Translations under genes and position numbers: made by a program
Part shown: positions 26,062 to 57,306 of the stretch, in pieces
Layout: each line of letters starts with the position of its first letter
How positions within the stretch are numbered: the stretch's first letter is position 1
The notes under the pieces: generated by a model
What the model was told of the DNA's origin: nothing
Databases searched by the model: none
What the model saw: the letters and a program-made list of their open reading frames with translations, nothing else
IMG/VR virus record: IMGVR_UViG_3300032268_001411
Location: 1-64,000 of that record
Direction: 5' to 3' (one strand)
DNA from: a virus
DNA: 64,000 nt

Positions 26062-26701
26062 TTATAAATCCAATTTTTCTAAATTTCTTTCCCTAATTAG
26101 AAGTTTAAACTCAGAAATTAAATTATTTTTACTTGATGCTGCACCTATAGTTCTGAAATTCTCACCATCAAAAGTAACAAAGTATTTGATAGCTCTGAAG
26201 AAACCGAATTTAATAATATTTCTCTCGAATGGAATAACACAATCATCTATATTAATTTCTTCAATTGAAATAATTCTATCAGTATCTATATGAACTACTT
26301 TGTCTTTATATTGTAATAATAATCTATCATATAGAATTGAACAATATTCATAAATCAGAGCTACTACTGAATGATGTGATTTATTTGATGCAAATCTTCC
26401 ATATAATGAATTTATCTGAGTTCTTCTAATATCATACTCAGACTTATTAGTTTCTTTCAATCGCTCTCTATCCTCAAGAAAATATTTAATTATACTATAT
26501 TCATCTTCTACATCGATTAGACCTTCTTCATGTAATAAACAAATAATTCTTGGATATAATAAAGAAAAATCTAATTGATGTAAATTTTCTAATAATTTGT
26601 CTTGATGCTCAGAATTTATCCATTTATATCCACCAATGTAATAATGACCTTCTTTCAGAAAGTTCTGATAATCTTTCTCTTATTTCATTAGTTATTCTCA
26701 T
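26062..26701 (-). pseudogene. Minimal family-B DNA polymerase palm-like gene interrupted near its 5' end (+1 frameshift or early stop)
   Basis: Frame open from 26679 to 26062 encodes LDFSLLYPRII (motif A), RTQINSLYGRF (B) and HIDTDRII (C). The in-frame ATG at 26688 is followed by AAA TAA; ATG 26701 is out of frame by +1. Confidence 0.65.
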
Positions 26702-27059
26702 TGAAAACCTCAATTTTAGTATTTACTTCAATTAATTCCGACCAAGTTCCTTTATAAGTTGTTGCTTTTACTGGTCTATTATCTATCCAATGATAGACTT
26801 GTCCGTCTTTACATCTTGGTTTATCCATAACTAAGCCATGATATTTGAACCCCTTTTCTGATAGCCATTTCTCAGTAACTTCTCTATCTTTTGATTCACG
26901 AGCGGTAAAAAAAGTAATAACATTACCCTCATCATACCACTTATTCAATATAAGTCTACTTTCTTCAAAGTGATTTGCTGTTGCATATAAATGACTATCT
27001 TCATTTCTTATATCGTCACAAATCGTACCATCACAATCAATCAAAAATATTTTATTCAT
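26688..27059 (-). CDS. HAD-superfamily phosphatase
   Basis: FLIDCDGTIC, FFTAR, MDKPR, WIDN. Confidence 0.85.
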   Translation of the reverse strand: MNKIFLIDCDGTICDDIRNEDSHLYATANHFEESRLILNKWYDEGNVITFFTARESKDREVTEKWLSEKGFKYHGLVMDKPRCKDGQVYHWIDNRPVKATTYKGTWSELIEVNTKIEVFNENN

Positions 27060-27100
27060 TAATTTATTTTTTCAATTATATAATTTAGATTGAATCAGGT

Positions 27101-28888
27101 TTATCTTTTGAATACCCATTTTTCTTGACCACAAGAATAAACTCTGTAATAACCAATCTCTTGTAAAATTTGCGATTCTGATTTATTTTTATCATATCCC
27201 ATTTTAATCAATCTTTTCTTATTAAAATTGAATCTATGTTTTCTTATACCATCAACTATCCAAAAATAATTAGGTTTAGAAAGACTCACTTTTTTGAAAC
27301 CCAATTTCTGATATAAGTTACCACTGAATAATGATATGTCAGAATAAGAAATTATCTCATTCACTTCATAGTTTTTAAGAAAGTGTGAAAATAATTTAGA
27401 GGCAGCACCAATTACATTATAATTTATCCTATTGCAAAATCTAATTAGCTCATATTCCCTTTTAGAGTTTGTAAACCTCCAACCAAATGTCATTAGACTA
27501 ACTAATTCATTATTAAAGTATAACCCAAGTTTAAGTTGAGAAGGACTTGAGCCTTGTATATGATTACTATTTAGAAATTGTGAAGAATCATTAGAATCTA
27601 CTAACTTTATCTCACATTTCCTAGCATAAATTTTATTATCTAGGAGATTTAATTTGTTTAAGATTATTGATTTAGTTATATCCCTTTTATATTTCCAATC
27701 GTCTTCCCAAATATGCAGAAGATGTATATCTTTTTCTTTACATTTAAATGTCTTATCTCTATGATAATATTTATCTAAATAAATTTCTGAGTGCCAATAA
27801 ACACCATTCATTTCAATAGCCAATTTATAATCAGGTAAATAAATGTCTAATTCTTTACCTTCTAAAATACTCCTATCTTTTTTATTGTAGCTTAAATTCA
27901 ATGAATTTAAAAAATCTTGTATCTCTAATTCCATATTTGAGTGTCCAAGGTTAATGTCTAAACATTTTGTACATATACAAATTTTCAAATTGTGTCTTGA
28001 ATATAGTAAATCTCTATTAATTTTGAAATTACGGCTACACTCTTTATGGAATATTTCAAAATTTGAGTTCCGATAATCAATAATCTCAAAACCTTCACCT
28101 ATCAAGTTTTCATATCTTAACTTGGTAAGATTCTCTCTATTATTTCTTAGTTTATTCTTAAATTCTTCTGTTTTTGAATAGTGTTCTACACCCCAATTTT
28201 CGATAGAAGTTTCCTTGACTTTCTCTCTATATTCTAATGACTGAGAGTAATTATCTACACCCCATCTACTTTGAGATATTTCTTTGATTTTAGATTTGAA
28301 TTCTGTTGTTTGTGAATATCTTTTCACACCATAGTTATCCAAAAAAGACTTAGTAGTCTTTTCTTTTATGTCTATATTTTGTTGTGGATACTCTACACCA
28401 AACTTTTCTAAATTTGATTTTTTAATTTTTTCTTTGTGTGTTGTAGATTTGAAAGTATTATCTACACCGAAGTTTTTTAGACATGTATTCTTATATTTCT
28501 CTTTGAATTCTTCAGTTTTTGAAAAATGATCGACACCATAGGTATCCAACAGACTATTTTTAAGTTTATCTTTTATTTCTTCTGATTGCATTGGGTTTTC
28601 AACACCCCATTTTTCTAAACAGGTTTCCTTACGTTTGATATTATTACATTTGTTACAAAAGTATTTTTCTTTTAAACCCTCTGTATATTCATAGTAGAAT
28701 CTGAATTCATTGCTCTTTTCCACACCGCAATTATCACATATTGATGTGATAATTGTGGTAGATCCGGGCATTAAATCTTCAATTTTTACCTGTATTGGTT
28801 TTTTGAATTGTATATCATATCCCTTTCTTTTGAAATGTTCAAAATTAGTCCTATGACCCCTAATTTCTATATAGATTTCTTTTATCAT
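27101..28888 (-). CDS. Hef-like endonuclease + Mom-like GNAT fusion
   Basis: Multiple KWGVENP/KFGVEYP repeats; ELDIYLPDYKLAIEMNGVYWHSE; YARKCE...ELIRFC...IISYSD. Confidence 0.75.
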   Translation of the reverse strand: MIKEIYIEIRGHRTNFEHFKRKGYDIQFKKPIQVKIEDLMPGSTTIITSICDNCGVEKSNEFRFYYEYTEGLKEKYFCNKCNNIKRKETCLEKWGVENPMQSEEIKDKLKNSLLDTYGVDHFSKTEEFKEKYKNTCLKNFGVDNTFKSTTHKEKIKKSNLEKFGVEYPQQNIDIKEKTTKSFLDNYGVKRYSQTTEFKSKIKEISQSRWGVDNYSQSLEYREKVKETSIENWGVEHYSKTEEFKNKLRNNRENLTKLRYENLIGEGFEIIDYRNSNFEIFHKECSRNFKINRDLLYSRHNLKICICTKCLDINLGHSNMELEIQDFLNSLNLSYNKKDRSILEGKELDIYLPDYKLAIEMNGVYWHSEIYLDKYYHRDKTFKCKEKDIHLLHIWEDDWKYKRDITKSIILNKLNLLDNKIYARKCEIKLVDSNDSSQFLNSNHIQGSSPSQLKLGLYFNNELVSLMTFGWRFTNSKREYELIRFCNRINYNVIGAASKLFSHFLKNYEVNEIISYSDISLFSGNLYQKLGFKKVSLSKPNYFWIVDGIRKHRFNFNKKRLIKMGYDKNKSESQILQEIGYYRVYSCGQEKWVFKR

Positions 28889-28927
28889 ATAATCTATATA
28901 TTAGAATTTCAAACGAAGTTTTGCCAA

Positions 28928-29293
28928 TTAAATAGAATGTAAACCCTGTCCATCATTCGAACTCTCAATAGAAATAAGGCGAATAAGATGTTCAGCATCG
29001 CCTTTTTTCTTATATAAGTCGTTGTAACCCTTTGCTAATCCCCTCTTGAATATCTCTGTGAAGTAAGCGAAAGCGTTGTCAGATTTTTCTTCATTAAAGT
29101 TGTACCAGCTTGAGAACATATGTAAGAGACCGGTTTGATAGCAATCCATTCTATCATCGTTATTATAGTATCTCATTTTCTTGATTGTTCTTTTGGCTAA
29201 AATTTCAAGCATCAATTTTGATTTATTGGTAAGTTTACCTTGAGCTTTACTGATTATTATTTCGACATATAAGTCTTTATTATGTAAGTAGAT
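28928..29293 (-). CDS. gp55-like late-transcription sigma factor (start uncertain)
   Basis: YLHNKDLYVEII...DDRMDC...YNFNEEKSDNAFAYFTEI matches gp55 motifs. The conserved N-terminus lies upstream of the track's TTG and begins at ATC 29293. Confidence 0.75.
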   Translation of the reverse strand: MYLHNKDLYVEIIISKAQGKLTNKSKLMLEILAKRTIKKMRYYNNDDRMDCYQTGLLHMFSSWYNFNEEKSDNAFAYFTEIFKRGLAKGYNDLYKKKGDAEHLIRLISIESSNDGQGLHSI

Positions 29294-29389
29294 AAGGTTA
29301 AAATTATTTTTTATAGGAAAATTTAAATCCTTTTTCTTTCATGTTATATCGTACATTTTTTATTTGTTTATCTTTGTTTTAAAAATTTA

Positions 29390-29397
29390 TATATTTG
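29390..29397 (+). promoter_or_regulatory. Bacteroidota-type -7 promoter element (TAnnTTTG)
   Basis: TATATTTG upstream of ORF 29467, with TTTG boxes further upstream. Confidence 0.45.
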
Positions 29398-31555: not shown

Positions 31556-33307
31556 ATGGCAGGAAGTTATAACCCACTAAATAATAGAAGTGAGATTGGA
31601 TATGTATCCTCAGCAGTAGAAAACAAGGGATTGTTTAATAGGCTTCTTAGAAGTCTATCGAATTTTGGGATGAAATATGATGATATGTTGATGCGTAATA
31701 CAGTCGGGGTCGGGATAAATGAGGATCCTTATTCGCAAAAGGGCAATTCAATGCTGGATTTTTTCTCACAACGCGCAGTTGCTTCAGTTTTGAATAGAAA
31801 ATCAATACCTTACTTAGATAGATCCTATGCAGACAAGAGAAGAATTCTTAGAGAATACTCTATAAAAGATGAGTTAAGAGATTTTGTTTCGAGAATATCG
31901 GATGAATCTATTATTTATAGCGAAGGTGATTTTTGCTCAGTCAAGCCACTATCAAATGATTACTCACAAGATATTCGTGATAAATATTCAGAATATTTTG
32001 AGATAATTTATAATCGTTATGGATTTGGAGATAATATTACTGCTTGGAATATGATGAAAGATTTTCTCATTGATGGATATGTGGCGATTGAAATAGTTTG
32101 GGATGATAAAAAGAAAAATATAATTGGTTTTAATAGATTAAGACCAGAAACTTTAGTGCCTGGGGGTGAACCAGCTATCGGTACAATTTGGATACAATAT
32201 CCAGAAGATCCACAATTGAGAAGAATTTTCTTAGACTCTCAAATAGTATTCATTTCATATTCTACTCAAAATGATTATTCCGAGACATCATATCTTGAGG
32301 GATTGATAAAGCCTTATAATCAATTAAAGATTATGGAGCAAACAAGAATAATGTTTAATATTGTAAATGCATCAGTTTATCAGAAGTTCACTGTGCCCAT
32401 TAAAGGTTTACCAAGACAGAGAGCTGAAGAACAGGTTGCTCAATTGATTGCTGATTATTCTGAAGAAATCGAATGGGATGACACACTTGGAACAGTTACT
32501 GTCAATGGTAGAAAACATCTACCCTATAATAAACAAATATGGTTTCCAGAAGGTGATGCTGGTACACCAAATATGACACTAGAATCACCTCAGGGTCATA
32601 ATTTAAATGAAAATGATATGTTGACTTGGTTCTTCAACATCTTAAAAAGAGCATCAAAAATACCAATGCAAAGATTTGATAAAGACGGATCTACAGGCGG
32701 TGGAACCGTTTTTGACGATGCCGCTTCTATGACAAGAGATGAGGTCACATTTGCAAATTTTGTAAATCGTTTAAGAGCTAACTACAAAGAATTAATAGTT
32801 AAACCCCTTAAACTTCAGATGTTGATGGAATTCCCTGAGTTAAGAGAGGATGAAATATTTCTTAACCAAGTTGATGTTTTATTTTATTCACATCAGTTAT
32901 TCGAAGAATGGAAAAAAACAGGTATTATGGAAAAAAGAGCTGGTATACTAAGTACACTTTTAGGTATTCAAACCGCAGATGGGCAACCATATTTTCACAT
33001 TGATTACCTTATCGATAAAATTATGAAATTAACACCAGAAGAGAAAGAAGAAAACCAATCTTATTGGCTTAAATCTAAGGCAGGAGGTGGATCGGCTGAG
33101 GGTGCAGAAGGTGGTGATATGGGAGCAGAAGGTGGTGATATGGGTGGTGGCGATATGGGTGCTGGTGATATGGGTGCTGAATCTGGAGCAGCACAAGGCG
33201 GTGCACAAGCCGGTGGAGCTCAGGCAGGGGCTCAGGCAGGCGGAGCACAGGCAGGTGGTGCTCAAGCAGGTGGTGAATCCGGTGGTGGGGGAGAATTTGA
33301 ATTTTAA
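31556..33307 (+). CDS. Portal protein (gp20-like)
   Basis: FLIDGY, SYLEGLIKPYNQLKIME, LPRQRAEE, IWFP, ASKIPMQRF, TRDEVTFANFVNRLR; Gly-rich C-tail. Confidence 0.92.
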   Translation: MAGSYNPLNNRSEIGYVSSAVENKGLFNRLLRSLSNFGMKYDDMLMRNTVGVGINEDPYSQKGNSMLDFFSQRAVASVLNRKSIPYLDRSYADKRRILREYSIKDELRDFVSRISDESIIYSEGDFCSVKPLSNDYSQDIRDKYSEYFEIIYNRYGFGDNITAWNMMKDFLIDGYVAIEIVWDDKKKNIIGFNRLRPETLVPGGEPAIGTIWIQYPEDPQLRRIFLDSQIVFISYSTQNDYSETSYLEGLIKPYNQLKIMEQTRIMFNIVNASVYQKFTVPIKGLPRQRAEEQVAQLIADYSEEIEWDDTLGTVTVNGRKHLPYNKQIWFPEGDAGTPNMTLESPQGHNLNENDMLTWFFNILKRASKIPMQRFDKDGSTGGGTVFDDAASMTRDEVTFANFVNRLRANYKELIVKPLKLQMLMEFPELREDEIFLNQVDVLFYSHQLFEEWKKTGIMEKRAGILSTLLGIQTADGQPYFHIDYLIDKIMKLTPEEKEENQSYWLKSKAGGGSAEGAEGGDMGAEGGDMGGGDMGAGDMGAESGAAQGGAQAGGAQAGAQAGGAQAGGAQAGGESGGGGEFEF

Positions 33308-33313: not shown

Positions 33314-33347
33314 TAAAAAAGGGAAAAATTAATTTTTTTCCCTTTTT
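33314..33347. terminator. Bidirectional terminator
   Basis: aaaaagggaaaaa...tttttcccttttt. Confidence 0.65.
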
Positions 33348-33739
33348 CTTTTTTCTATTATTTCCTTTGATTTTGAAGGGTTATCAACACCCCACTTTTC
33401 AATCATGGTTTCTTTTATTTTATTTTTTATTTTTTTACTTTGTATTGGATATTCAACTCCATGATTTTCTACCAAAGTTTCTTTTCTTTTCTTCTCGGAA
33501 CATTTTCTACAAAAGTAATCACCCCAACGATTTCCATATTTGACATAGTTTTTGAAAATAACTTCTTTAACTACACCACATTTATCACATTTACAATTTA
33601 TTTTATAATGACTACCCGAAGTTAATAATTCTATTGGTATAACTAAATTTTCACCAAGAGTTACATCGTAACCAAGTTCTTCATAATATCCGAAATTTGA
33701 TTCGGTTATTTTTACCAATATTTCTCTCGTTAGTATCAT
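33329..33739 (-). CDS. Nuclease-less fragment of the Hef-like family (Zn finger + KxGV repeats only)
   Basis: Similar to the N-terminus of 27101..28888 (GYD...LTSGS...CDKCG...CRKC...HGVEYP, WGVDNP). Confidence 0.65.
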   Translation of the reverse strand: MILTREILVKITESNFGYYEELGYDVTLGENLVIPIELLTSGSHYKINCKCDKCGVVKEVIFKNYVKYGNRWGDYFCRKCSEKKRKETLVENHGVEYPIQSKKIKNKIKETMIEKWGVDNPSKSKEIIEKRKREKN

Positions 33740-34215
33740 TTTTTTAATGAGTAGTGATAGGATTCTGTCCCACTTATAAACTTTACATTTAGATCTATAT
33801 CAAATGTAATGATTTTTTCTTCTGAGTTATATATGGGAACAAGCTCTAGCTCTAACTCATCCTTTTTCAAATTTTGTAGTGGTCTCCCAATTGCAGTATT
33901 CAATATTTTTATACCTGCCCAAAATTCACCATCCTCAAAAGATATTTCAGTTATAACGTGAGAAGCATAATATTGACTTATATCATTTCTTGTACCAGAA
34001 CCTTGATAAGTTGAACCATAACGTGTATTATCTATTGAAATCGAACCGAGTCTTTGAAATTTATCTTCACCACTTACATTTTCTTCTAAAGAAAAAATTT
34101 CATTTATAAACTCATCTCTCCTTAACATTATAGCAACTTCATTAGAATAATTTCTAATGAATTCCCACATATCTGATTCGAAATTTTCTCCGGTTTGTCT
34201 AATTTTTATTTTCAT
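33736..34215 (-). CDS. Degenerate prohead-protease paralogue lacking catalytic His/Ser
   Basis: ASHVITEI...IKILNTAIG...ITFDID aligns by eye to ASHIIRG...IKLLNTYWG...FTYDIV of 35999..38179; GEFDHP and VSSR motifs are absent. Confidence 0.55.
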   Translation of the reverse strand: MKIKIRQTGENFESDMWEFIRNYSNEVAIMLRRDEFINEIFSLEENVSGEDKFQRLGSISIDNTRYGSTYQGSGTRNDISQYYASHVITEISFEDGEFWAGIKILNTAIGRPLQNLKKDELELELVPIYNSEEKIITFDIDLNVKFISGTESYHYSLKK

Positions 34216-34216: not shown

Positions 34217-35845
34217 TTATAAATTTAATTCCCACTTAATTTTACCACAGTCCCAAATTTTTGGTATCTCTAATTTCGATTCTGATATTCCAGTTACAGA
34301 TTTCTTAAAATTAGATTTGTGTACTCTCCTTTCACCTACTACATATTTATAATCCGGTTCACTTTCACTCACTTTCTCAAAATTTAACTTCTGATATAAA
34401 TTTCCTCTACTCCAATCTTTGTCTGCATAACTAATTATTCGTTTTGGTTTCAAATTATCTAAAAAAAATTTCAAAAGTTTAGAAGCCCCACCAATTATAT
34501 TATGTTCCAATTTATTACAAAATCTATTCAGATTCCACTCGTACTGAGACATTTTCTTACGACCTTCCCATTTATCAAATGTCATCAAAGAAACTAATTC
34601 TTCATTGTAAAATAAACCTAATTTGATATTTGAATTAACATGACCTTGAATGTGATTATTATTCAAAAATTCTCTAACTAATGTAATATCCTTTATTTCA
34701 ACAACCTTACACTTTCTAGCGAATATTTTTTTGTTGATTCCAATCAAACTTTTTATTTGACTTTTGATAATTTCACCCTTTTGTTTCCAATCATCCTCCC
34801 AAATATGAATCAATCTTATTCCATTTTTTTCAAAAAAATTTGATTTATTAAGATGAAAACTTTTATCTTTATATCTATCTGAATGCCAATAAATACCATT
34901 CATTTCGAACCCTAATTTTAATTCTGGTAAATAAATGTCTATTTCTGCCCTATCTATTTTAAAATTTTGAATTATTTCACCATTGTAAATTGATTTGATA
35001 TAATTAAAGAGTTTGATTTCTTGTCCAGATTGATTCTTACCTATTGGGTTACAAACGGTACATATTTCAGTGTTAGTTTCTCTTCTTTTATAGAAGAGAA
35101 CTCTATTAATCGAATATTTTGAATTGCAACTATTGCAAAAAATATTATAAAATTCATTTTCTATTGATATCAATTTATCAATTTTTTCAAAGGATTTTTT
35201 TGATAGTGTATTTTTTAATGAGGTTTTTATTTTATCAATTACAAATTCATTTTTTGACGGTGCTTCACTCCCCCATTTTTCTATATTTTTTTTGATACTT
35301 TTTTCTTTGAAATAAACTGATTGAAATAAATAATCACATCCATATTTTACTCTATTGGAGTTAATTTGATTTTTTTTGAAATCATCTGACCTGAATATAT
35401 AATCTACACCATTATTTCTTATTGATGTTTTAACCTTTTTAATCTCAATTGAATTTAATTGTGACACATTTTCAACACCCCATTTTATTTTATTAGTTTC
35501 AATTCTTTTTCTATTTACTTCTTCTTTATCTAATTTAGAAAAACTCTCTTTTATTTTTTCTTTTACTTTTTCTGACTGTGAAATAAATTCAACGCCAAAC
35601 TTTTCTAAATTAGTCTTTTTAGTTTTTTCTTTGGTAGATTCTAACTGAAAAACATTTTCGACTCCATACTTCTCTAAGTTATTCTTTTTTAGTTTACATT
35701 TTCTACATAAATATTCACCATCTATATATCCATAAGAAGTATAGAGTTTGAACTCTAAGCTCTTTTCTATCTCACAAATATCACACTTCACCTCAATTTC
35801 TTTTTTACTCCACTTTCCTAAACCACCTATATCACTTAGAATCAT
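34217..35845 (-). CDS. Hef-like endonuclease + Mom-like GNAT fusion
   Basis: KYGVENV repeats; EIDIYLPELKLGFEMNGIYWHS; FARKC...NRFC...IISYADKDWSRG. Confidence 0.75.
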   Translation of the reverse strand: MILSDIGGLGKWSKKEIEVKCDICEIEKSLEFKLYTSYGYIDGEYLCRKCKLKKNNLEKYGVENVFQLESTKEKTKKTNLEKFGVEFISQSEKVKEKIKESFSKLDKEEVNRKRIETNKIKWGVENVSQLNSIEIKKVKTSIRNNGVDYIFRSDDFKKNQINSNRVKYGCDYLFQSVYFKEKSIKKNIEKWGSEAPSKNEFVIDKIKTSLKNTLSKKSFEKIDKLISIENEFYNIFCNSCNSKYSINRVLFYKRRETNTEICTVCNPIGKNQSGQEIKLFNYIKSIYNGEIIQNFKIDRAEIDIYLPELKLGFEMNGIYWHSDRYKDKSFHLNKSNFFEKNGIRLIHIWEDDWKQKGEIIKSQIKSLIGINKKIFARKCKVVEIKDITLVREFLNNNHIQGHVNSNIKLGLFYNEELVSLMTFDKWEGRKKMSQYEWNLNRFCNKLEHNIIGGASKLLKFFLDNLKPKRIISYADKDWSRGNLYQKLNFEKVSESEPDYKYVVGERRVHKSNFKKSVTGISESKLEIPKIWDCGKIKWELNL

Positions 35846-35998
35846 AAGACTGAATTATTTTTATCAAATTAACCATACACTATATATAAAAATAAATCAT
35901 TTGTTTCATTGGTATTTTATTTATCCATAAAAAATCCACCTTTATTTTTTTTCGGTTTTTTACATTATATATACAAATATAAAAATAATTATGCCTTA

Positions 35999-38179
35999 AT
36001 GAAACCAATATTAATTGTTGAAAACAACGCAAATCCCTTAAAGGAAAACGTTAGAATTTCAGGTGGTAAGAAAGATTATGTTTTGGGTGGTATTTTCACT
36101 GAATTTGATGTAAAAAATCGAAATGAGAGAATTTATACTGCTTCAAAATTTCTTCCATGCCTAAATGAATTGAATGAACGTATTCAGACTATGGGTGTGG
36201 TTTATGGTGAATTCGATCATCCCGACGTCTTCGACACATCACTATCACGTGCTTCTCACATTATTAGAGGAGCAAAATACATCAAAGAATCTAACCGTGT
36301 TGAAGGTGAGATTAAATTATTGAATACTTACTGGGGTAAAGAAGCCAAATCACTAGTTGATGATGGTTGTCCAGTATTTGTATCTTCAAGAGCTGCTGGT
36401 GTAACGGAATCAGATGGAACAGTAACACTTAAGAAGTTATTTACCTATGATATTGTTGCTGATCCTGGATTTGGATCTGCTAGAATGAAATCTATTAATG
36501 AATCCTTTGGATTTTCTAATAAATCTAACTTTAGGATATATGAAATGTCCGACGAGTCTAAAATCAATGATCTTTTCAATATGAATAACAAAGACTATGT
36601 TACTAAGCAACAGTTGTCTGACTATTCTAAGTATTTAGTGAATGAAATCGCTTCTACGAAGAAAGCTGCACAATCAGCTCTAAAGACTGGTAACTTAAAT
36701 CCAAGAAAATTAGAGCAATTACTTGAGTACTATGAAGAACTCAATAAAACTAATTCTCAAATGGTCAAATATCTTGACTACCTAGCAGAAAAAGTACAAG
36801 TAGTTGTAAATGAAAACAAATCACTTAAGACTACAACTAAAAAACTAATTTCTCACAACGACTATTTAGCTGAGAACCTCGAAAAGGCTATTAATTATTC
36901 TGAATATGTTGCTGAAAATGTAGATAAGAATATTTCTTACACTAAATATTTGGCTGAAAACCTTGATAAGAATATTTCTTACTCTGAATATGTAGCTGAG
37001 AATGTTGATAAAAACATTGAATATTCTAACTACTTGGCAGAAAATCTTGACAAGAACATTGCTTACTCTGAATACGTAGCTGAAAACTTAGATAAGAACA
37101 TTGCTTACTCTGAATATATTGCAGAAAATCTCGACAAAAACATTGCTTACTCTGAGTATATCGCAGAAAACTTGGATAAGAACATTGCTTACTCTGAGTA
37201 CATCGCAGAAAATCTTGACAAGAACATTGCTTACTCTGAATATATTGCAGAAAACTTAGATTCATCAATTGCTTACTCTGAATACTTGGCTGAGCATGTT
37301 GAAGGTAACATTGCTTACTCTGAATACATCGCTGAGCACCTTGATGATAACATCGCTTATTCTGAATACCTAGCTGAGAACTTGGATAAAACAGTTTCTT
37401 ATGCTGGAATGATTACTGAAAAAATGAATAGAGGTGGTAGACTATTTGAGAGTAACGCTTATGGTAGCGATATGATGCCAACTTTATCTGAAGTAGGTTT
37501 CGAGGAAATCGAAGATGAAAAATACGAAGAGGAAGAAGAGGGTGATGATGATACATATATGATGATGCAACATCCTAAGAAATCTATGTATATGGGAATG
37601 GAAAATTCTATGGACATGGAAGCTGAAGAAAGCGAAGAAGACAAAGAAGCCTATGTAGGCGAATCTGATACTGAACTATCAAAACAAATAGATAAACTTA
37701 TTGAAGAAGCTAGAAAACGTAAAGTTTCTGAAACAAATGATTTAAATTTTTTGAAGTTTTTGAATAAGTCTCAAGTGAATAGTTATTATAACTTAACAAA
37801 TGAGGAACAAGAACAAGTAAAGCTTTACATAAACGAAAGAAGTTATTTTACTGGTAAAGAAGTTCTAAATTTAATTCAAGAGTCTCTTTCAGTAAAGAAC
37901 GAATCACTAGAAGAAAAAATGATTAGATTGATGCCTGATAACGTTAAGACAGTTTGGTCAGAATTGAGTGATTCAAGTAAAAAATCAATCCTTTCACAAG
38001 CAAGACTCTACCCAGATTTAACAAATGAGAGCAAAATTGAGAATTTCTGGATGACAAGAAGTTTGCTTAAAAAACAAACACCTACTAAGAAATTAGTAAG
38101 CCATACTTCCCTAATTCAAGAAGATAAATTATCTGATAATGAAATGAAAGGAATTTTGGAAAGATTTAAAAATCTCTAA
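35999..38179 (+). CDS. Prohead protease (gp21-like) fused to a repetitive scaffold region
   Basis: KNRNERIY, GEFDHP, VSSRAAG, TYDIVADPG; then 13 x 14-aa repeats and an acidic linker; ATG at 35999. Confidence 0.9.
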   Translation: MKPILIVENNANPLKENVRISGGKKDYVLGGIFTEFDVKNRNERIYTASKFLPCLNELNERIQTMGVVYGEFDHPDVFDTSLSRASHIIRGAKYIKESNRVEGEIKLLNTYWGKEAKSLVDDGCPVFVSSRAAGVTESDGTVTLKKLFTYDIVADPGFGSARMKSINESFGFSNKSNFRIYEMSDESKINDLFNMNNKDYVTKQQLSDYSKYLVNEIASTKKAAQSALKTGNLNPRKLEQLLEYYEELNKTNSQMVKYLDYLAEKVQVVVNENKSLKTTTKKLISHNDYLAENLEKAINYSEYVAENVDKNISYTKYLAENLDKNISYSEYVAENVDKNIEYSNYLAENLDKNIAYSEYVAENLDKNIAYSEYIAENLDKNIAYSEYIAENLDKNIAYSEYIAENLDKNIAYSEYIAENLDSSIAYSEYLAEHVEGNIAYSEYIAEHLDDNIAYSEYLAENLDKTVSYAGMITEKMNRGGRLFESNAYGSDMMPTLSEVGFEEIEDEKYEEEEEGDDDTYMMMQHPKKSMYMGMENSMDMEAEESEEDKEAYVGESDTELSKQIDKLIEEARKRKVSETNDLNFLKFLNKSQVNSYYNLTNEEQEQVKLYINERSYFTGKEVLNLIQESLSVKNESLEEKMIRLMPDNVKTVWSELSDSSKKSILSQARLYPDLTNESKIENFWMTRSLLKKQTPTKKLVSHTSLIQEDKLSDNEMKGILERFKNL
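36869..37414 (+). repeat. 13 x 42-nt coding repeat (AENLDKNIAYSEYI)
   Basis: Counted directly in protein and DNA. Confidence 0.95.
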
Positions 38180-38257
38180 TCTATAAAAAATCCACGTTTA
38201 AAATTTATTAAATTTTTGGGGTTATATATAGATAAAATAAAAAAAAACAAATTAATT

Positions 38258-40024
38258 ATGTCACACATTAGAATAGACAAACAAAAAGCACTTAAAAAAT
38301 GGGCTCCTGTATTGGAGAACATGGGTGTTGTAAGCGAAGACAGACTTGACTGGATGTCTGAGTATGCTGAATTCCACACAATCAACGAAAACGCATACGT
38401 AAATGCAGCTAATGCTGGTATGGGTGCTGTAAGTTCACCACAACCATCTCTTTATGCTGGTTCAAACAACTACGCTGGTGGTAGTATCGCTGCTGGTAAT
38501 GCATTAAATAACTTTGGTAATATTGGATCTGGTGATTTGGGTCAAAACCTACTTCCAGTAGCAATGAAGATCGCAGCTCAAACAATTGGTTTGGATCTAG
38601 TATCTGTAAAACCATCTCCGGGTCCGAAATTAGACCTTCTTTATATTGACTTCCAATATGATGATGTTGATACAAATCAAGGCCGTCCATTAGTTTTTAA
38701 AGTTAACTCTGGTGTTAATAACACTGCAGTAAATGCCGCTATTAGAGCGTTGAGTGGATATAGCACTAACATTTTAGAATCAGTTGGTGGTATTCAATCA
38801 GCATTGAGTTCAGGTTCTCCTTACCATGTTTATGTTTCTTTAAATGCAACTGGAAATAGTGGACTCGGTGCTATCGGTGTAGTTCAACTTTCAACTACTA
38901 CAGGTTTGTCTGATAAAGAGGGTATTGCTGAATTTCTTGGTTTCTCTCGTATTGACGGTTATCCAATCTTCAGAGCGTTCAGACAAGCAAATGCTGTTGG
39001 AAATATGACACTAACTTCGCCATACGCTGCACCTTATCAATACGAACCAAGTCTTAACACTTTCAATCCAACTGGATCAATTGCTGGTCAAATTAACTTG
39101 ATTGCTGGTGTAACAGTTTCAGCTGTTGTTGAATTAGTATCAGCTTTAGAAGATCAACTTCCAGCTTTCTCTACTAACTTCACAGACAACTCTCAGAATG
39201 GTAGATATCCAATGAGCCGTTCTGAAGATGATTTAACTTACGCTGGTGTAATCGGACCAAAGATTTCTTCGAAATCAATTGCTGTTGGTACTATCGAAGT
39301 TTCTTCAGTATTGAGAAGAACTGAAATCGAAGACATTAAAGCTAACACAGGTATGGACATCGTTCAAAAAATGGAATCTATCCTTGTAAACGAATTGTCT
39401 CAGACAATCTCTAAACAAATCGTAGGTAAAGTATTTGAAATGGGTGATTTGAACAGAAATACTGCTCCACTTGGTGGAACTGGTTCTGGTGTTATTGCAA
39501 ATCAAACAGTTTTCGACTTAGATACTATTTACGCAGTAACTGGACCTGGTGGTGAAACTACTCACGCAGTACAACGTAAACTTATCACTAAGATGGTTCA
39601 CGCTTCTAACTATATCGCAACTGAAGGTCGTGTAGGTCCTGCTCAGTACGCTGTAACAAACGGAGCTTTGGCTGCATCACTTATGGACATCGCTGGTTAC
39701 ACTGTTAACCCAGTTAAATCTAAAATCAACGGTTCAGGTCAACTTTACCCTGTTGGACAGATTGGTGATATCCAAGTATATGTAGACCCATATATGAAGT
39801 ATAACGATAACAGAATCGTTTTAGGTAGAAAGAACAATCCTGATCAACCAGGTATTATCTTCGTACCTTACTTGATGGCTCAGTCAATCAGCCTTATTTC
39901 TGAAGCTACATTCGCACCAAGAATGTTGTTAAGAAGCCGTTATGCAGTCGCGGAAGTTGGTTGGTTCCCACAAAAACAGTATATGACTATTAAAGTGCAA
40001 GATGCTAATGGTTTCCTTAACTAA
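38258..40024 (+). CDS. Major capsid protein (gp23-like)
   Basis: KKWAPVLE, AAQTIGLDLVSVKP, VYVDPY, PGIIFVPY, TFAPRMLLRSRYA; follows the protease; strong terminator. Confidence 0.93.
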   Translation: MSHIRIDKQKALKKWAPVLENMGVVSEDRLDWMSEYAEFHTINENAYVNAANAGMGAVSSPQPSLYAGSNNYAGGSIAAGNALNNFGNIGSGDLGQNLLPVAMKIAAQTIGLDLVSVKPSPGPKLDLLYIDFQYDDVDTNQGRPLVFKVNSGVNNTAVNAAIRALSGYSTNILESVGGIQSALSSGSPYHVYVSLNATGNSGLGAIGVVQLSTTTGLSDKEGIAEFLGFSRIDGYPIFRAFRQANAVGNMTLTSPYAAPYQYEPSLNTFNPTGSIAGQINLIAGVTVSAVVELVSALEDQLPAFSTNFTDNSQNGRYPMSRSEDDLTYAGVIGPKISSKSIAVGTIEVSSVLRRTEIEDIKANTGMDIVQKMESILVNELSQTISKQIVGKVFEMGDLNRNTAPLGGTGSGVIANQTVFDLDTIYAVTGPGGETTHAVQRKLITKMVHASNYIATEGRVGPAQYAVTNGALAASLMDIAGYTVNPVKSKINGSGQLYPVGQIGDIQVYVDPYMKYNDNRIVLGRKNNPDQPGIIFVPYLMAQSISLISEATFAPRMLLRSRYAVAEVGWFPQKQYMTIKVQDANGFLN

Positions 40025-40122: not shown

Positions 40123-42099
40123 ATGAATAAGTTAGAAATAATTGACAAAATCTTACAAGATGAAGGAAACCGATTAAGAGAATCATATTTCATCAAAAAT
40201 AGTCCCCATATTCTGGATGAAATATTGCAATATTGCACTAATATTACTCACATACCTTTCAAACAGAAAATTTGGCACTGGGTGAATGATAATCCAAATG
40301 AATACCTTTGTAAATGTGGTAACACAACAACTTTCAATAGAAACTGGAAAGATGGTTATAGAAAATATTGTTCGGCTAAATGCTCAGCAACTGACACTTC
40401 TACAAAAGAAAAACGTAAAAACACAAATGTTCAAAAATATGGGGTTGATAATGTTGCTAAAGCAGATAGCATTAAAAATAAACAAATGGAAACTAATTTA
40501 GATAGATATGGTACTAAATCATCTGCTCAAAACGAAGAAGTTAAAAAGAAATATAAAAATACTATTAAGAAGAAATATGGAACTGAATATTATTTTCAAT
40601 CAGATGATTTTAAATTGAAATCAATGGATTCCAATTTAGAAAAGTATGGAACTCATTTTACCAAAACAGAAGAATATAAAGAAAAAACTAAGAAAACTAA
40701 TTTAGAAAAATTTAATAATGAGTGGTACACACAAACAGAAGAGTATAAAGAGAGATATAAAAAAACTTCTTTAGAAAAATGGGGTGTTGAAAGCTTTCTA
40801 CAATCAGAAGAACTTAGAAACATTTTAAAAAATAATAAGCCCGAAATAATAGAGAAAATTAAAAAAACATCACTACATAAATGGGGTGTTGAATGGTATA
40901 ACAAAACCGATGATTTTAGGAATAAAATAAAGGAAAAGTGGGAAAGTGGTGTCTATTCGAATATAAAATCAAAATCGATAATTACAAATAATCTTTTATA
41001 TGGATTTGATTGGTTTACTCAAACAGAAGAATGGAGGAATTATTTAAAGTCTGATGAATTTAGGAATAAAATAAAATACTCACTTATTGAAAAATCTAGC
41101 GAACATTATAAAAATATAGGATATGTTCTATTGGATATTGAAAATGACTTTGTTACATTAAAGGGTAACTGTGGACACACATTCAAAATAAAAATCTACA
41201 ATGCGAGTAGAAGGAACATCAATGGATTAATTGTATGTACAGAATGTAATCCAATTAATATAAGCCAATCTGGTTCTGAAATAAACCTCGTGAGTTGGCT
41301 AAATCAACATATAGAATTAGAAACAAAAAACAGAAGTCAAATTTCACCACTTGAGCTAGATATATACATTTCTTCTAAAAGTGTTGCAATTGAATATAAT
41401 GGACTATATTGGCATTCAGAACTTTACAAAAACAAGAAATATCATTTAGAAAAACTTCTAAGATGTAATGAAGTCGGTATAGACTTAATTCAAGTTTGGG
41501 AAGATGATTGGTTAGAAAGACAAGAAATAGTTAAGTCTATAATCCTCTCTAGACTTGGATTGATTCAAAATAAAATTGGTGCGAGAAAGTGCCATATCGA
41601 ATTTATCCAGGATAGAAATTTAGTGAATAATTTTTTTGATAACAATCATATACAAGGAAAGACTAATTATAAGTTTGCTGTTGGGTTGTTTTATAATGAA
41701 GAATTAGTTTCTTGTATGTTATTCAATAAACCAAAAAAGGATTTTGAATTAGTAAGATTCGCTAATAAAATAAATTTAACTGTGAGTGGGGCAGCATCAA
41801 GACTATTTAAATATTTCAACGATAATCAAGATGTTTCTGAGATAGTTTCATTTGCCGATAGGGCAACTTTTAATGGTAATTTATATAGGGAATTAGGTTT
41901 TGAATTTGTCCATAGGACGGAACCAAATTTTTGGTGGATAGTAGACGGCAGAAGAAAACATAGATTTACTTATAATAAACAGAAATTAATAAAGGCTGGT
42001 GGTGATCCGAATAAAACTGAAGTCCAAATAATGAATGAAATGGGATATCAAAGAATATTTGGATGTGGACAAGATAAATATGTTTATAAAAAACACTAA
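40123..42099 (+). CDS. Hef-like endonuclease + Mom-like GNAT fusion
   Basis: KYGVDN/KWGVE repeats; ELDIYISSKSVAIEYNGLYWHSE; GARKC...ELVRFA...IVSFADR. Confidence 0.75.
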   Translation: MNKLEIIDKILQDEGNRLRESYFIKNSPHILDEILQYCTNITHIPFKQKIWHWVNDNPNEYLCKCGNTTTFNRNWKDGYRKYCSAKCSATDTSTKEKRKNTNVQKYGVDNVAKADSIKNKQMETNLDRYGTKSSAQNEEVKKKYKNTIKKKYGTEYYFQSDDFKLKSMDSNLEKYGTHFTKTEEYKEKTKKTNLEKFNNEWYTQTEEYKERYKKTSLEKWGVESFLQSEELRNILKNNKPEIIEKIKKTSLHKWGVEWYNKTDDFRNKIKEKWESGVYSNIKSKSIITNNLLYGFDWFTQTEEWRNYLKSDEFRNKIKYSLIEKSSEHYKNIGYVLLDIENDFVTLKGNCGHTFKIKIYNASRRNINGLIVCTECNPINISQSGSEINLVSWLNQHIELETKNRSQISPLELDIYISSKSVAIEYNGLYWHSELYKNKKYHLEKLLRCNEVGIDLIQVWEDDWLERQEIVKSIILSRLGLIQNKIGARKCHIEFIQDRNLVNNFFDNNHIQGKTNYKFAVGLFYNEELVSCMLFNKPKKDFELVRFANKINLTVSGAASRLFKYFNDNQDVSEIVSFADRATFNGNLYRELGFEFVHRTEPNFWWIVDGRRKHRFTYNKQKLIKAGGDPNKTEVQIMNEMGYQRIFGCGQDKYVYKKH

Positions 42100-48831: not shown

Positions 48832-50160
48832 TTAAATTCCAGCTTTCATATCTTTACCTTTATCCGGTACTCCACCTAACTTACCTTTTTTCTTTTTAGT
48901 TTCTTCACCTTCCTTTTCAATTTCATTGTAAACATCTGGATATACCTGTTCGGCACCATCAACGTCATATTTTACGTCAAACCATTTTGAAAAATCAACT
49001 AAACCTGTTCTCATTAATTCCGTTTCACCTTTTCTTTTATAGAACTCATCTATTTTAGATTGAATTTTATCAACAAAGGTATTGAAAATTACTAAAGTTG
49101 CATCAGTAAATAAACCAACTGGTTTTTTCCTTTTTTTATTGAATGAACCTAAAATCACTTTGAAAATATATTCGAACTTTTTATTTTCACTAATGATTTC
49201 TTTAGTCATTTTATTTGGAATTAGTTCTGTGTTGATTCTGAATTTATCTTTATCGAAAAATTGAGGTACAACAAAGTCAAAATTCATAAGGTCTTCTTTA
49301 ACTTCAGTTAAATAGATGTTAAAAATTTTACATATTAGGTAGATATAAATTTCTTCTCTTTTAGAACCTTTCAATTTAATCTCATTCATGTTTATCGACC
49401 CACAGAAGTTTAAAAAATTAATTAAGATTAAACTATAGATTTCAACGAAATCGGTTGAATTTGATTCTGAAAATCTAGTATATAGTGGATTCAATATTTC
49501 GAATGATACATCTAATCCATCAACATTAATTACAATTTTCTCAAGGTTCTTTTGAAAATCATCATTCATTAAAAATGAATTTTTGATTTGAGGATTCAGT
49601 AATTTATAGAAGAAGTAGGCAAACGATTTTTCACCGAACACATATTCCAAATCCCCCTCACTTGTATTTAAGAAGTATTTGATAGCTTCTTTTGAGTGAC
49701 TATTTAATGTGCCTTTAAAGATATAAGGAATTACATCTACTTCAAATAGTCTTGAATATTCGTCTAATTCTTCTGGTGTATAGTTAAATTTGCCGTTTTT
49801 GCAAATAGAAGTAAGTACGAGATTATTTTTTGGTATTCTGTTGTATTCAATGTTGGCTGGCTGTGGATCTGGAAAAAATTCAAAACAAAACCACCATTTT
49901 TTATCCATTAGACCCTTTACTCGGTCGCTAAAACTAAGAAAATAGTTTATAGCTTTATTATAGTAATTTTGTAGAGTTAGATCTATTAGATTGAGTGGAT
50001 CGTTAGAAATAGATTTGGCTTTTATTTGAAATTCTTGACCATTCCAGTTAACGAATATTTTAGAACCTTGTATGTCTTCGAATACGGTGATTTCTGAATT
50101 AAGAATTTTATCGATTAATTCGTCATCTTTAATTTGATTTAAAGTTATTAATTTACCCAT
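48832..50160 (-). CDS. RNA-ligase-fold protein, probably inactive
   Basis: VFEDIQGSK in place of EKxDG; FCFEFF, LVLTSI, IPYIFKG and EKIVI occur in ligase motif order. Confidence 0.45.
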   Translation of the reverse strand: MGKLITLNQIKDDELIDKILNSEITVFEDIQGSKIFVNWNGQEFQIKAKSISNDPLNLIDLTLQNYYNKAINYFLSFSDRVKGLMDKKWWFCFEFFPDPQPANIEYNRIPKNNLVLTSICKNGKFNYTPEELDEYSRLFEVDVIPYIFKGTLNSHSKEAIKYFLNTSEGDLEYVFGEKSFAYFFYKLLNPQIKNSFLMNDDFQKNLEKIVINVDGLDVSFEILNPLYTRFSESNSTDFVEIYSLILINFLNFCGSINMNEIKLKGSKREEIYIYLICKIFNIYLTEVKEDLMNFDFVVPQFFDKDKFRINTELIPNKMTKEIISENKKFEYIFKVILGSFNKKRKKPVGLFTDATLVIFNTFVDKIQSKIDEFYKRKGETELMRTGLVDFSKWFDVKYDVDGAEQVYPDVYNEIEKEGEETKKKKGKLGGVPDKGKDMKAGI

Positions 50161-53752: not shown

Positions 53753-53774
53753 CCTCTTAAAAAGTTAAACAATA

Positions 53775-54734: not shown

Positions 54735-54757
54735 ATAATAAAATAAAAATAATAAAT

Positions 54758-54913
54758 ATGAAAGAATTACTTTTACACCCAGTTACATCTATTATCATCA
54801 AAACTTTGGCAGTTTTATGGATAGTCTACAATTTCACTTTTATGAGCGTGATTACCCTACTAATACTAATCTGTGCTTATGATGCAATTAGTGATTTCTA
54901 TAAAGAAAATTAG
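54758..54913 (+). CDS. Small membrane protein (51 aa)
   Basis: Manual translation: MKELLLHPVTSIIIKTLAVLWIVYNFTFMSVITLLILICAYDAISDFYKEN. Confidence 0.5.
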   Translation: MKELLLHPVTSIIIKTLAVLWIVYNFTFMSVITLLILICAYDAISDFYKEN

Positions 54914-54987
54914 TAGAATTATCCCAAAATCAAAAGTTTCAAATTTATTTGAGACTTTTTTAATATATAGAAATAAAAACGTCTTCA

Positions 54988-55656
54988 ATGAGAATATTAA
55001 AATATTTCGAGAATTTTTTGAATCAAAGTCACGAGGAAAAAGCTTATACAAAAATGTTTTCATTTCGTCAAGGTGAAGGTGGTTGTATAAATTGTAATAC
55101 AAATTCCATCAGTATAATACAAAAAGAAACAAATATATTATATGATTTCAAGAAGTATATAAATTTTGAGGGTAATATATTCAATTCAAAAGTTCGTAAT
55201 ATATCAACTATAAGCATAACTTCTCAAAAAACTAAAAATGATTTAGCTAAATTAGGAATAGTTTCAAACAAAACAAAAATAGTTAAATATCCGGATATAC
55301 CTGAAAATCTACAAAATCACTTTATGAGAGGAGTTTTTGATGGTGATGGATGTATTTCACTAAGATGTGATAAAAGAGATGGTAATCAAAGAGGACAAGT
55401 AAATATATGTTCTGGTAGTTATGATTTCATCAAAGAATATTACGACAAATTAGTCAAATTTTGTAGTCTTTCCGGAAAAAATAAAATCAGAAATCCAAAA
55501 GGAACTTACTATGTTGTAGATTGGGGAGGATTTTCAGATGTAGAGAATATCTATGAATTTTTTTATAAAGACGCTACAGTCTATTTGAGCAGAAAAAAAG
55601 AAACTTTTGAGAAAGTAATCTCTATAACAAAAGAAAAAATTAAATATAGAAAATAA
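54988..55656 (+). CDS. LAGLIDADG-family endonuclease-like protein with leader
   Basis: HFMRGVFDGDGCI, LGIVSNKT, YLSRK. Confidence 0.8.
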   Translation: MRILKYFENFLNQSHEEKAYTKMFSFRQGEGGCINCNTNSISIIQKETNILYDFKKYINFEGNIFNSKVRNISTISITSQKTKNDLAKLGIVSNKTKIVKYPDIPENLQNHFMRGVFDGDGCISLRCDKRDGNQRGQVNICSGSYDFIKEYYDKLVKFCSLSGKNKIRNPKGTYYVVDWGGFSDVENIYEFFYKDATVYLSRKKETFEKVISITKEKIKYRK

Positions 55657-55657
55657 T

Positions 55658-56608
55658 ATGTGTGCTGCGATGGTTTCTTATTTTGGAGGCAAGAGTTCCT
55701 CTGTATTCCTTGATTTTATTAATAAAAAGATTCCAAAGACAGGTATCAAAACCTACCTAGAGCCCTTTGCTGGAAGTTACGCTACGTACCTCGATGATGA
55801 TACTCTTAACTTCGAAAAAGTCATTTATAATGACAAAAACAGACATCAAGTTAATCTTTATAGATGTTGTGCTGAGCCAGAAAAATTCTTACCGGTTTTA
55901 GAAAAACTAAAACAAACACTCTTACACACAACTGAAACTGATCCACTTAAAAAATGGGATTTCTATAAAGCACTTTACAGAAAGTATGTAGATAATGATT
56001 TCTTAGATAATAATGATTTTGAGATTGGTGACTTTAAGAGAGCCGCTATCTATGCTTTCCTTATTACATCAAGCTTCTCTAGTGTGTTCCCCAAAAATGC
56101 AGGCTTCAGTGGTTATAAAAAAGATAAAGATAGACTCAAATTAGAAGTACTTATCGATAAATTGAAGAAGAATAAATATACACAGAAGCTACAATCTATC
56201 ACAGAGTTCAATAATATTGATTTTCAAGAATTAATTCTTAAATATGATAGTCCAGAAACCTACATTTACCTTGATCCCCCGTACTGTCGCTTCGATGAAG
56301 AAAAAGGAGATGATGATGCGAAAAGATTATCTTGGTATGGTGCAGCTGATGACTCTGTCTTTGGTATAGCTTCGCACAGAAGACTTTTAGAATTGATTAA
56401 AGGCATAGAAAGTAGATGGTCACTATCATACTATTACTTCCCTCTCTTAGAAGAATTATTACCAAAAGATAAATATTTCTGGTTTGAAAAAGAAGTTAAT
56501 AGAAGTTCTGCAAATGGTGGAAACAATCACGAATCAAAAGGTAAAGCAGCCAAAGGCACCGAACTCTTAATTCTTAACTATAATCTAGAAACAGGTGAAA
56601 AGGTATGA
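55658..56608 (+). CDS. Dam-like (D12 class) N6-adenine DNA methyltransferase
   Basis: SYFGGKS, YLEPFAGS, IYND, YLDPPY, LSY, ELLILNY. Confidence 0.9.
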   Translation: MCAAMVSYFGGKSSSVFLDFINKKIPKTGIKTYLEPFAGSYATYLDDDTLNFEKVIYNDKNRHQVNLYRCCAEPEKFLPVLEKLKQTLLHTTETDPLKKWDFYKALYRKYVDNDFLDNNDFEIGDFKRAAIYAFLITSSFSSVFPKNAGFSGYKKDKDRLKLEVLIDKLKKNKYTQKLQSITEFNNIDFQELILKYDSPETYIYLDPPYCRFDEEKGDDDAKRLSWYGAADDSVFGIASHRRLLELIKGIESRWSLSYYYFPLLEELLPKDKYFWFEKEVNRSSANGGNNHESKGKAAKGTELLILNYNLETGEKV

Positions 56609-57306
56609 AAGTAAAAGATTTGAAGGGTGAGATTAAGATAGACTCAGATTTTTCAAGAATACTTAAAAGAGATGATAGGATTAATCTCTATAAACCTATT
56701 GATTTTAGGTTAAGTTATACAAAGGAATACTTCTCACTTGTAGATGATAATTATATAGATAATAATCTAATTTCCGCTGTTAAAAATGAAATCGAACAAA
56801 AAATTGATGAATCTTTACTTCTTAAATATGAGAATTTTAGTGAAGAACATTTAGATGTCAGTGATTTAACTTATGAATATACTATTATTAGATTAAGAGA
56901 TTTTTTGAGTGAATGTAATACTGATTTTATGGTTGCTGATTATAAAATTGCCACTCATTTCTTTTCTTCTGATTTTTTTGTTCCATCAAAACCGACTACT
57001 GGTATTTCAAGATCTATTTTTCATTATGGTACACTTTACGATAAAATAGATTACTTTATTAATCATTCTATTGGTGATAATAATAACATAATCTTATGTG
57101 GTAAGAGAGGGAGTTTTTCTTATAATTTTTATTTGGAGTGGGTTCGTGTTGTTGAAGATGAATTGAATATTAATTTAGATGTTAGATATTATTTACAAAC
57201 TAATATAAATGAGAGTGACTTCTTTAGACTCCACTTCCATATTGATAAAGATACTATTCCGAAATCATTTACTAGAGATAAAACTATTGATAATCTACTA
57301 AATTAA
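56605..57306 (+). CDS. Truncated, diverged major-capsid-like paralogue
   Basis: DFMVADYKIATHF...IFHYGTLYDKIDYFINHSIGDNNNIILCGKR aligns by eye with capsid QYAVTNGALAASL...LYPVGQIGDIQVYVDPYMKYNDNRIVLGRK. Confidence 0.5.
   Translation: MKVKDLKGEIKIDSDFSRILKRDDRINLYKPIDFRLSYTKEYFSLVDDNYIDNNLISAVKNEIEQKIDESLLLKYENFSEEHLDVSDLTYEYTIIRLRDFLSECNTDFMVADYKIATHFFSSDFFVPSKPTTGISRSIFHYGTLYDKIDYFINHSIGDNNNIILCGKRGSFSYNFYLEWVRVVEDELNINLDVRYYLQTNINESDFFRLHFHIDKDTIPKSFTRDKTIDNLLN

Follow-up and report, generated by a model that had tools for sequence, protein, structure and literature searches.

The stretch of DNA analysed here (the window) covers 64,000 nucleotides and represents the first 64 kb of a 75.6-kb contig (IMG/VR record IMGVR_UViG_3300032268_001411) with approximately 30% G+C and a CheckV completeness of 16%. 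It carries four genes which are the subject of this work, encoding a catalytically dead paralogue of the prohead protease (a), a miniature paralogue of the major capsid protein (MCP) (b), a mini polymerase-B protein (c) and an RNA-ligase-like protein (d) (Table 1). An initial inspection, which used the sequence alone, had taken them as a possible set of decoys, i.e. short and degenerate copies of essential phage proteins directed against host sensors or co-infecting phages. The folds of all four indeed agree with the proposed parent families. However, they differ from each other in distribution, evolutionary rate and context, neither (c) nor (d) is a copy of an essential gene of the same genome, and only (b) and (c) end in a common C-terminal motif, here called the tag.

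The phage from which the window derives is a huge T4-type freshwater phage of low G+C and belongs to a large uncultured clade related to LR745206 and LR756502. These two uncultured phages (634 and 642 kb, respectively) are the nearest phage records by DNA. Relatives of the MCP are encoded by at least 236 viral contigs; the best 80 of them share 61-76% identity, with two records among them measuring 464 kb and 195 kb. The sequencing runs containing the window sequence are freshwater and lake metagenomes, and no RNA datasets are listed among these runs. What is known about huge phages comes largely from metagenomes, and for the majority of their genes no function has been assigned. Here, direct searches of Pfam and PHROGs with the proteins (a), (b), (c) and (d) gave no match, and PDB sequence searches with (a), (d) and the profile of (d) were likewise negative.

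Table 1. Position of the four genes, their tags and related features in the window (aa, amino acids).
Feature	Position	Strand
(a) 159-aa catalytically dead prohead-protease paralogue, assemblin/gp21 fold	33736..34215	-
(b) 233-aa miniature HK97-core MCP paralogue	56605..57306	+
(c) mini polymerase-B protein, 212 aa in relatives	26062..26701	-
(d) 442-aa RNA-ligase-like protein, EDIQGS instead of motif I lysine	48832..50160	-
C-terminal tag of (b), RDKTIDNLLN	57274..57303	+
C-terminal tag of (c), RERNLEKLDL	26065..26094	-
Prohead protease and parent of (a), gp21-type (peptidase S77), 756 aa, with His104 in GEFDHP and the Ser in VSSRAAG	35909..38179	+
MCP, gp23-type, 602 aa; parent of (b)	38216..40024	+
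Portal gene	31556-33307	
136-aa partner gene overlapping the end of (a); homing endonuclease paralogue	33329..33739	-
Homing endonuclease paralogue	3291-4976	
Homing endonuclease paralogue	27101-28888	
Homing endonuclease paralogue	34217-35845	
Homing endonuclease paralogue	40123-42099	
D12-class Dam-like methyltransferase, upstream neighbour of (b)	55658..56608	+
Hairpin and T run directly after the (c) stop, terminator-like end of the endonuclease-phosphatase-(c) gene string (read directly)	26027..26057	-

The four genes and their homologues

The AlphaFold model of (a) reached a predicted local distance difference test score (pLDDT) of 70 and a predicted template modelling score of 0.68. Among 48,161 PDB representatives, its fold matched best the T4 gp21 protease 5jbl (Z 8.3, root mean square deviation 2.8, 105 residues); the second match reached only Z 3.9 and herpesvirus proteases came next. 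The weak top matches in Foldseek are the gp21 protease and herpesvirus proteases, too. Furthermore, the family of (a), comprising 34 sequences, could be aligned by hhalign with the protease family of the clade (probability 79%, E 1.7e-5), whereby residues 64-119 of (a) correspond to residues 97-152 of the protease. The catalytic His of the protease is found in the GEFDHP motif, which corresponds to the position of T4 His85, and its column is occupied in (a) by Q71 (in the context YGSTYQG). Across the 34 sequences, this column reads Q20/D6/E3/T/I/K and never contains H. The sequence-only reading, which had seen in (a) a prohead protease without both catalytic motifs, is thus supported regarding the loss of the His. 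The loss of the Ser is less clear, because the candidate residue (by eye maybe S131) is situated outside the hhalign match, in an unconserved column (S10/N7/D3/A3/C2).

Nine homologues of (a) have 150-168 aa and share 36-91% identity. An iterated search with hidden Markov models in 80 loci around the MCP genes of relatives revealed 33 orthologous open reading frames (ORFs) in 31 relatives, all of them encoded on the strand opposite to the protease gene and upstream of it, i.e. head-to-head with it. The ratio of nonsynonymous to synonymous substitutions (dN/dS) of (a) among relatives amounts to 0.1-0.5; these values are rough, since dS is near saturation. In one relative, G001, (a) is only 36% identical compared to 70% for the MCP. 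The 136-aa partner protein resembles the N-terminal DNA-binding part (DUF7487) of the homing endonucleases of the window. The overlapping pair of this gene and (a) is also kept in G001, where no endonuclease separates (a) from the protease gene. This retention of the endonuclease N-terminal part beside (a) in a distantly related phage points more to a DNA-binding protein than to a gene remnant.

We regard (a) as a putative old and fast-evolving dead paralogue of the protease, which most likely binds the protease itself, the head core or protease substrates without cutting. By such binding it could act as regulator or assembly partner, similar to the "cryptic protease" paralogues of SPN3US-type giant phages. 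Truncated and presumably inactive paralogues of the prohead protease have been reported with gp117 of SPN3US, gp206 of 201phi2-1 and gp143 of PhiPA3 (PMC5694885). Like these proteins, (a) is a short (136-160 aa in the comparison), diverged gp21-type paralogue without His at the catalytic position, and it adds a further example to the already described truncated protease paralogues of giant phages; the comparison of (a) with gp117 is one by description only. In contrast to the phiKZ-like cryptic proteases, (a) occurs in a Bacteroidota-like huge phage with a T4-type MCP, its gene is oriented head-to-head with the protease gene, and it is paired with the protein resembling an endonuclease N-terminus. 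Hence, the dead protease carries a little-noticed observation from phiKZ-like phages over to a T4-type lineage. As a side observation, the prohead protease itself has a C-terminal extension (residues ~320-500; 36860-37400), in which approximately 12 NIAYSEYIAENLDK-like repeats of 14 residues are arranged in tandem and precede an acidic run.

The relationship of (b) to the MCP is not visible by BLASTP, which gave no match between the two proteins. In hhalign, the family of (b) was aligned with 61 MCPs of the clade over 181 columns (probability 95%, E 3.9e-8), whereby residues 16-201 of (b) correspond to MCP residues 340-570. The profile of (b) also matched the MCP ORFs (566-603 aa) of nine relatives in two collinear segments. 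The AlphaFold model of (b) is poor (pLDDT 48); all 50 top VIA matches are HK97-fold capsid or encapsulin proteins (Z 4.5-6.5, 148-179 residues), as are all listed Foldseek matches (best E 1.8e-3). The earlier notion that (b) resembles only part of the MCP can therefore be specified: (b) represents the HK97 core of the MCP of this phage, with the first ~340 residues missing. It does not have the N-terminal MCP part for shell building (propeptide, N-arm, insertion domain), since the alignment begins at MCP 340 with 15 residues of (b) before it.

Only two close homologues of (b) were present in the protein collection. Profile searches of the genomes of relatives identified orthologues with 232, 225 and 249 aa in G001, G005 and G011, respectively. 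In all three the methyltransferase gene precedes (b), the enzyme being 70-74% identical and (b) 22-25%. Searches of related loci in viral or metagenome contigs found no relatives of (b), the ESM Atlas returned no usable match, and in literature searches on capsid decoys and huge-phage paralogues (b) is not described. Hence, the tagged mini-capsid represents a type of protein without description in the literature searched. We consider it as a fast-evolving HK97 core of the shell protein linked to a Dam-like methyltransferase. The closest known case is the T4 vertex protein gp24, a paralogue of gp23 (PDB 1yue), which is, like (b), an HK97-fold paralogue of the MCP and appears among the fold matches (Z 5.6). 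However, gp24 has nearly the full length of the MCP and is encoded next to gp23, whereas (b) comprises 233 aa compared to 602 aa of the MCP, contains only the C-terminal core and is situated 17 kb off. Furthermore, unlike gp24, it is fast-evolving, has a methyltransferase as neighbour and ends in a tag that is common to non-structural proteins. In the same region, a 552-aa protein with C-terminal CxxCxGxG-like zinc-finger repeats is convergent on (b) (57560-59218, minus strand) and is found beside (b) in three relatives, and a LAGLIDADG-like gene (54988-55656), which has a paralogue at contig position 70496-71491, lies directly upstream of the methyltransferase gene.

The open frame of (c) (26062-26679) contains the pre-motif A YIGGY..W.N, motif A DFSLLYP, motif B NSLYGRFA, motif C IDTD and IKYF (KxY). 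Exonuclease, TPR or thumb domains are missing. The earlier designation as a palm-only polymerase B is correct regarding the polymerase B motifs and the palm; however, a short fingers segment (motif B) is included as well, and the gene range spans a +1 frameshift. All ten homologues (75-97% identity) are intact, have 212 aa and start with MRITKE, whereas (c) is broken in the window by an extra T at position 26659 (CTTTCTG vs CTTCTG). This T is present in the probable source run at a depth of 15.7 and missing from the contigs of three other freshwater runs, which indicates that the frameshift is specific to the strain of the window. Alternative genetic code 4 is ruled out as explanation, because the blocking stop is TAA and the frame of the relatives is uninterrupted. 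A contig of another freshwater run (X2; window 26000-27100) is identical to the window from 26000 to 26686 except for the missing T. Its upstream gene for a HAD-like phosphatase (26688-27059) shows approximately 30 differences, mostly at third codon positions, which marks a sharp boundary of recombination where (c) starts.

The family profile of (c) (11 homologues) matches the phi29 polymerase (E 0.0085) and, more weakly, archaeal family B polymerases. PF03175 scored 19.8 bits on (c), i.e. below its cut-off of 25.8, and the PF00136 search matched the main polymerase and not (c). Among the 19 relatives that were searched for the presence of (c) and (d), an orthologue of (c) was found only in LR745206. 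This protein (216 aa, 27% identical) has retained the Asp of motif A, reads DAD in motif C and contains KKRY, while in some other homologues E replaces the Asp of motif A and motif C reads ETD. No relatives of (c) were detected by the related-locus search in viral or metagenome contigs, the ESM Atlas led to short phage clusters only, and literature searches on mini polymerase B proteins gave no description of it. The dN/dS could not be computed for (b) and (c), since the DNA pairs are saturated or absent.

The replicative family B polymerase of the phage is split. Its N-half is encoded beyond the window (contig 66379-68046), contains the exonuclease domain and motif A, and ends in the fingers; it is followed by a GIY-YIG/NUMOD endonuclease gene (region contig 66379-69097). 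In LR745206 and in G003, a near-complete relative of 464 kb (98% complete), the C-half is a separate gene for 345-474 aa, situated 100-130 kb from the N-half. That (c) is the missing C-half is ruled out: it contains a motif A already, the actual C-half is encoded elsewhere, and hhalign of (c) was insignificant with the N-half as well as with the C-half. Hence, (c) is a polymerase B palm of the protein-primed type, nearer to the phi29-type polymerases than to the split polymerase of the phage, and not a worn copy of the replicase. It can be aligned with phi29-type protein-primed polymerases (PF03175; PDB 1xhx) at YxGG..W.N, motif A, the motif B NSLYGKFA and DTD. However, these polymerases have 575 aa, compared to 212 aa in (c) without exonuclease, TPR1, TPR2 and thumb. 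We regard (c) as a minimal phi29-type palm that keeps the metal-binding carboxylates, an accessory gene which would be dispensable in the strain of the window.

For (d), a full HMMER scan yielded 434 homologues, with (d) being aligned across residues 1-430. In a sample of 42 homologues, 11 match the RNA_ligase family PF09414 (best E 2.7e-8) and three the adenylation domain of DNA ligases; a C-terminal cytidylyltransferase-like domain occurs in 11 of the 42. Motif I reads EKxDGS in 24 distant members, whereas the K is replaced by D/Q/N/E/M in the 18 close ones including (d). In the close subfamily the motif reads ED/N/QxQGS, and position 29 is D in (d). Together with K29, Arg61 and the Lys of motif V at position 221 are lost in this subfamily. 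The proposal of a ligase family member without the adenylated Lys is therefore well founded. The gene is present in 16 of the 19 relatives with 52-71% identity and a dN/dS of 0.08-0.15, again a rough value due to a dS near saturation. In G003, (d) is the sole member of its family, without an active paralogue. Its neighbours encode thymidylate synthase, an Fpg-like glycosylase, a glycosyltransferase and leucine-rich-repeat proteins. Literature searches on huge-phage paralogues did not reveal a description of (d). We propose (d) as a likely pseudo-ligase core gene under strong purifying selection, which presumably serves as an RNA- or nucleotide-binding protein or has a structural function. Its distant family members match PF09414 and have the motif I EKxDGS like the ATP-dependent RNA ligases of the Rnl2/DRB0094 type. 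The subfamily of (d) differs from these enzymes by the loss of the adenylated Lys, Arg61 and the motif V Lys, and (d) itself matches no Pfam model.

A C-terminal tag on unrelated proteins

The similar endings of (b) and (c) had already been noticed by eye, and this observation can be substantiated. The pattern R[DE]xx[IL]xxL occurs four times in the 77 ORFs of the contig, and two of these occurrences are the C-termini of (b) and (c) (shuffle P ~0.002). It is kept in strongly diverged orthologues: those of (b) with 22-25% identity end with NRDRKLDELL, NRDKKIDELL and LRDKKIDSLLD, and the orthologue of (c) from LR745206 (27% identity) ends with HIREDKLIELGI. Moreover, R224, D225, D229, L231 and L232 belong to only 13 invariant columns of (b), making the tag the best-kept part of this protein. 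A genome scan for the pattern, as had been suggested, brought up further carriers across the clade. Applied without changes to three other whole relatives, it gave 2, 5 and 7 C-terminal matches compared to 0.03, 0.015 and 0.26 expected from the internal pattern frequency (Poisson P 4.5e-4, 6e-12 and 1e-8, respectively). In G003, seven proteins carry the tag according to the strict pattern and 13 according to a relaxed one, most of them encoded by ORFs of 71-127 aa clustered at 427-453 kb. In this cluster and at 1968-2231, both near the genome ends of G003, nearly all small ORFs end with R[DE]xK[IL][DE]x[IL]L. A further carrier is a minimal P-loop protein of 211 aa in G001 (L004 2004-2639; GEGKT, ILFIDD; weak AAA/DnaA match), which ends with LREKKLDILLK and is absent from the contig of the window.

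Hence, the tag is a clade-wide C-terminal signature on unrelated domains, which is not described in the literature searched. We suggest that (b) and (c) belong to a wider group of otherwise unrelated proteins ending with Phi-x-R-[DE]-x-[KN]-[IL]-[DE]-x-L-L, and that the tag would form a short amphipathic helix docking all carriers onto one common partner. A comparable situation is known from T4, where one C-terminal clamp-binding peptide is common to the polymerase gp43, gp55, gp33 and the DNA ligase (PMC2988020, PMC7892883). In both cases a short C-terminal peptide is found on unrelated proteins, with the single hub being shown for T4 and putative here. However, unlike the T4 clamp tails, the tag differs from the ending of the clade's own polymerase: the C-half ends with VVLDIFSGF or VVMDIFGGFK in G003, G006 and LR745206. 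The clamp motif of the clade is thus probably aromatic-acidic, and the reader of the tag is probably not the clamp. The different, aromatic-acidic tails of the polymerase C-half and of other proteins weaken the assumption that the tag is a clamp-binding motif. If the reader of the tag is found, a whole class of uncharacterised phage proteins could be sorted by destination.

Independent paralogues or one system

Since the four genes have neither distribution nor rate nor context in common and only two of them are tagged, we find it rather probable that they are independent products of duplication or capture, each maintained by selection, which were cut to a core domain or lost catalysis, and that they do not form one system. 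Fast evolution is seen in (a) and (b), whereas (d) belongs to the core genes and changes slowly, and (c) occurs sporadically. The assumption of selection, made already in the sequence-only reading as non-neutral evolution, is consistent with the dN/dS values of (a) and (d) and with the intact orthologues that exist for all four. Selection hence seems to maintain cut-down or inactivated versions of a head protease, a shell protein, a polymerase and an RNA ligase in one large freshwater clade. Several observations weigh against this view. The profile match of (a) has a probability of 79% across 54 columns, confidence in the model of (b) is low (pLDDT 48), and the relaxed pattern for the tag was drawn up post hoc from data already inspected. 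Furthermore, the fast evolution of (a) and (b) fits what is expected of arms-race proteins, and the recurrence of the tag on miniature versions of three core domains (capsid, polymerase, P-loop) may point to a closer connection than would be expected of unrelated genes.

According to the original proposal, the copies would soak up or jam host sensors of capsid, protease and polymerase, or poison the assembly of co-infecting related phages. Of the refuting conditions set with this proposal, neither a mismatch of folds nor neutral evolution applies. In favour of such decoys, the folds agree with those of the parents, (a) and (b) evolve at least three times faster than their neighbours and are placed outside or against the late operon, and defences sensing the MCP, polymerase and prohead-protease activity exist. 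CBASS enzymes sense the activity of prohead proteases via a cleavable loop (PMC12991175, preprint), so that a dead protease could in principle shield the activation loop that is cut by phage proteases. This makes a substrate-trap role for (a) a concrete idea, and such a role, or a dominant-negative one against co-infecting phages, is possible. However, Avs sensors become active when they bind the MCP, portal or polymerase as a bare core fold, regardless of catalysis (bioRxiv 10.64898/2026.01.04.697583); hence, a mimic is expected to trigger and not to blunt them. Moreover, (b) is diverged so far that BLAST no longer recognises the MCP which it should mimic, (c) is not copied from the phage's own polymerase, keeps the catalytic carboxylates and was lost by frameshift in the strain of the window, and (d) is a slowly evolving core gene without an active twin of its family. 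Finally, the four have neither common regulation nor a common motif, and many unrelated small proteins are also tagged. We therefore consider such a decoy or dominant-negative set as very unlikely. Only somewhat less improbable appears a variant in which the tag is an address read by one hub, recruiting a dozen small proteins together with the mini-capsid, the mini-polymerase and the mini P-loop ATPase as soluble mimics against host sensors or rival phages, while the dead protease separately acts as substrate trap hiding protease-sensing immune loops.

Instead of antagonists, the proteins could be ordinary minor parts of the virion or its assembly, with (a) belonging to the head core or scaffold, (b) to a special vertex or the minor shell like T4 gp24, and (d) acting as assembly factor. 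T4 RNA ligase 1 (gp63) also promotes the attachment of tail fibres. In line with this explanation, (a) is situated between the portal and protease genes, which is the position of head-core genes in T4, and (d) is conserved about as well as the MCP; moreover, giant phages commonly have paralogous head proteins (PMC5694885). However, (a) and its partner are encoded on the strand opposite to the head operon, (d) is found among genes of nucleotide metabolism, and (b) is missing the first ~340 residues of the MCP, lies 17 kb off beside a methyltransferase gene and is conserved far below any shell protein. Structural roles for these proteins thus appear unlikely, although they are the most plausible of the alternatives. 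Another explanation would be decaying fragments left by homing endonucleases and gene splits. The window indeed contains five paralogous DUF7487/Vsr-type homing endonuclease genes (36-40% identical), one directly beside (a) and one upstream of (c), the polymerase gene is split, and (c) is frameshifted. But intact orthologues of the same length exist for all four genes across wide divergence, the dN/dS of (a) and (d) is well below 1, and the conserved tag is the best-kept part of (b), so that decay is largely refuted and hardly credible any more.

Aromatic-acidic tails in the clade

Tails resembling the VVLDIFSGF ending of the polymerase C-half were also seen on other proteins. The 174-aa protein encoded upstream of the polymerase N-half (contig 65772-66296) ends with FYDIDF, and G001 has the ending LDFFDIDF at 28001-28525. 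In G003, a protein of 291 aa (31857-32732) ends with YLDIF. By their resemblance to the polymerase ending, these tails may be the true clamp-binding tails of the clade.

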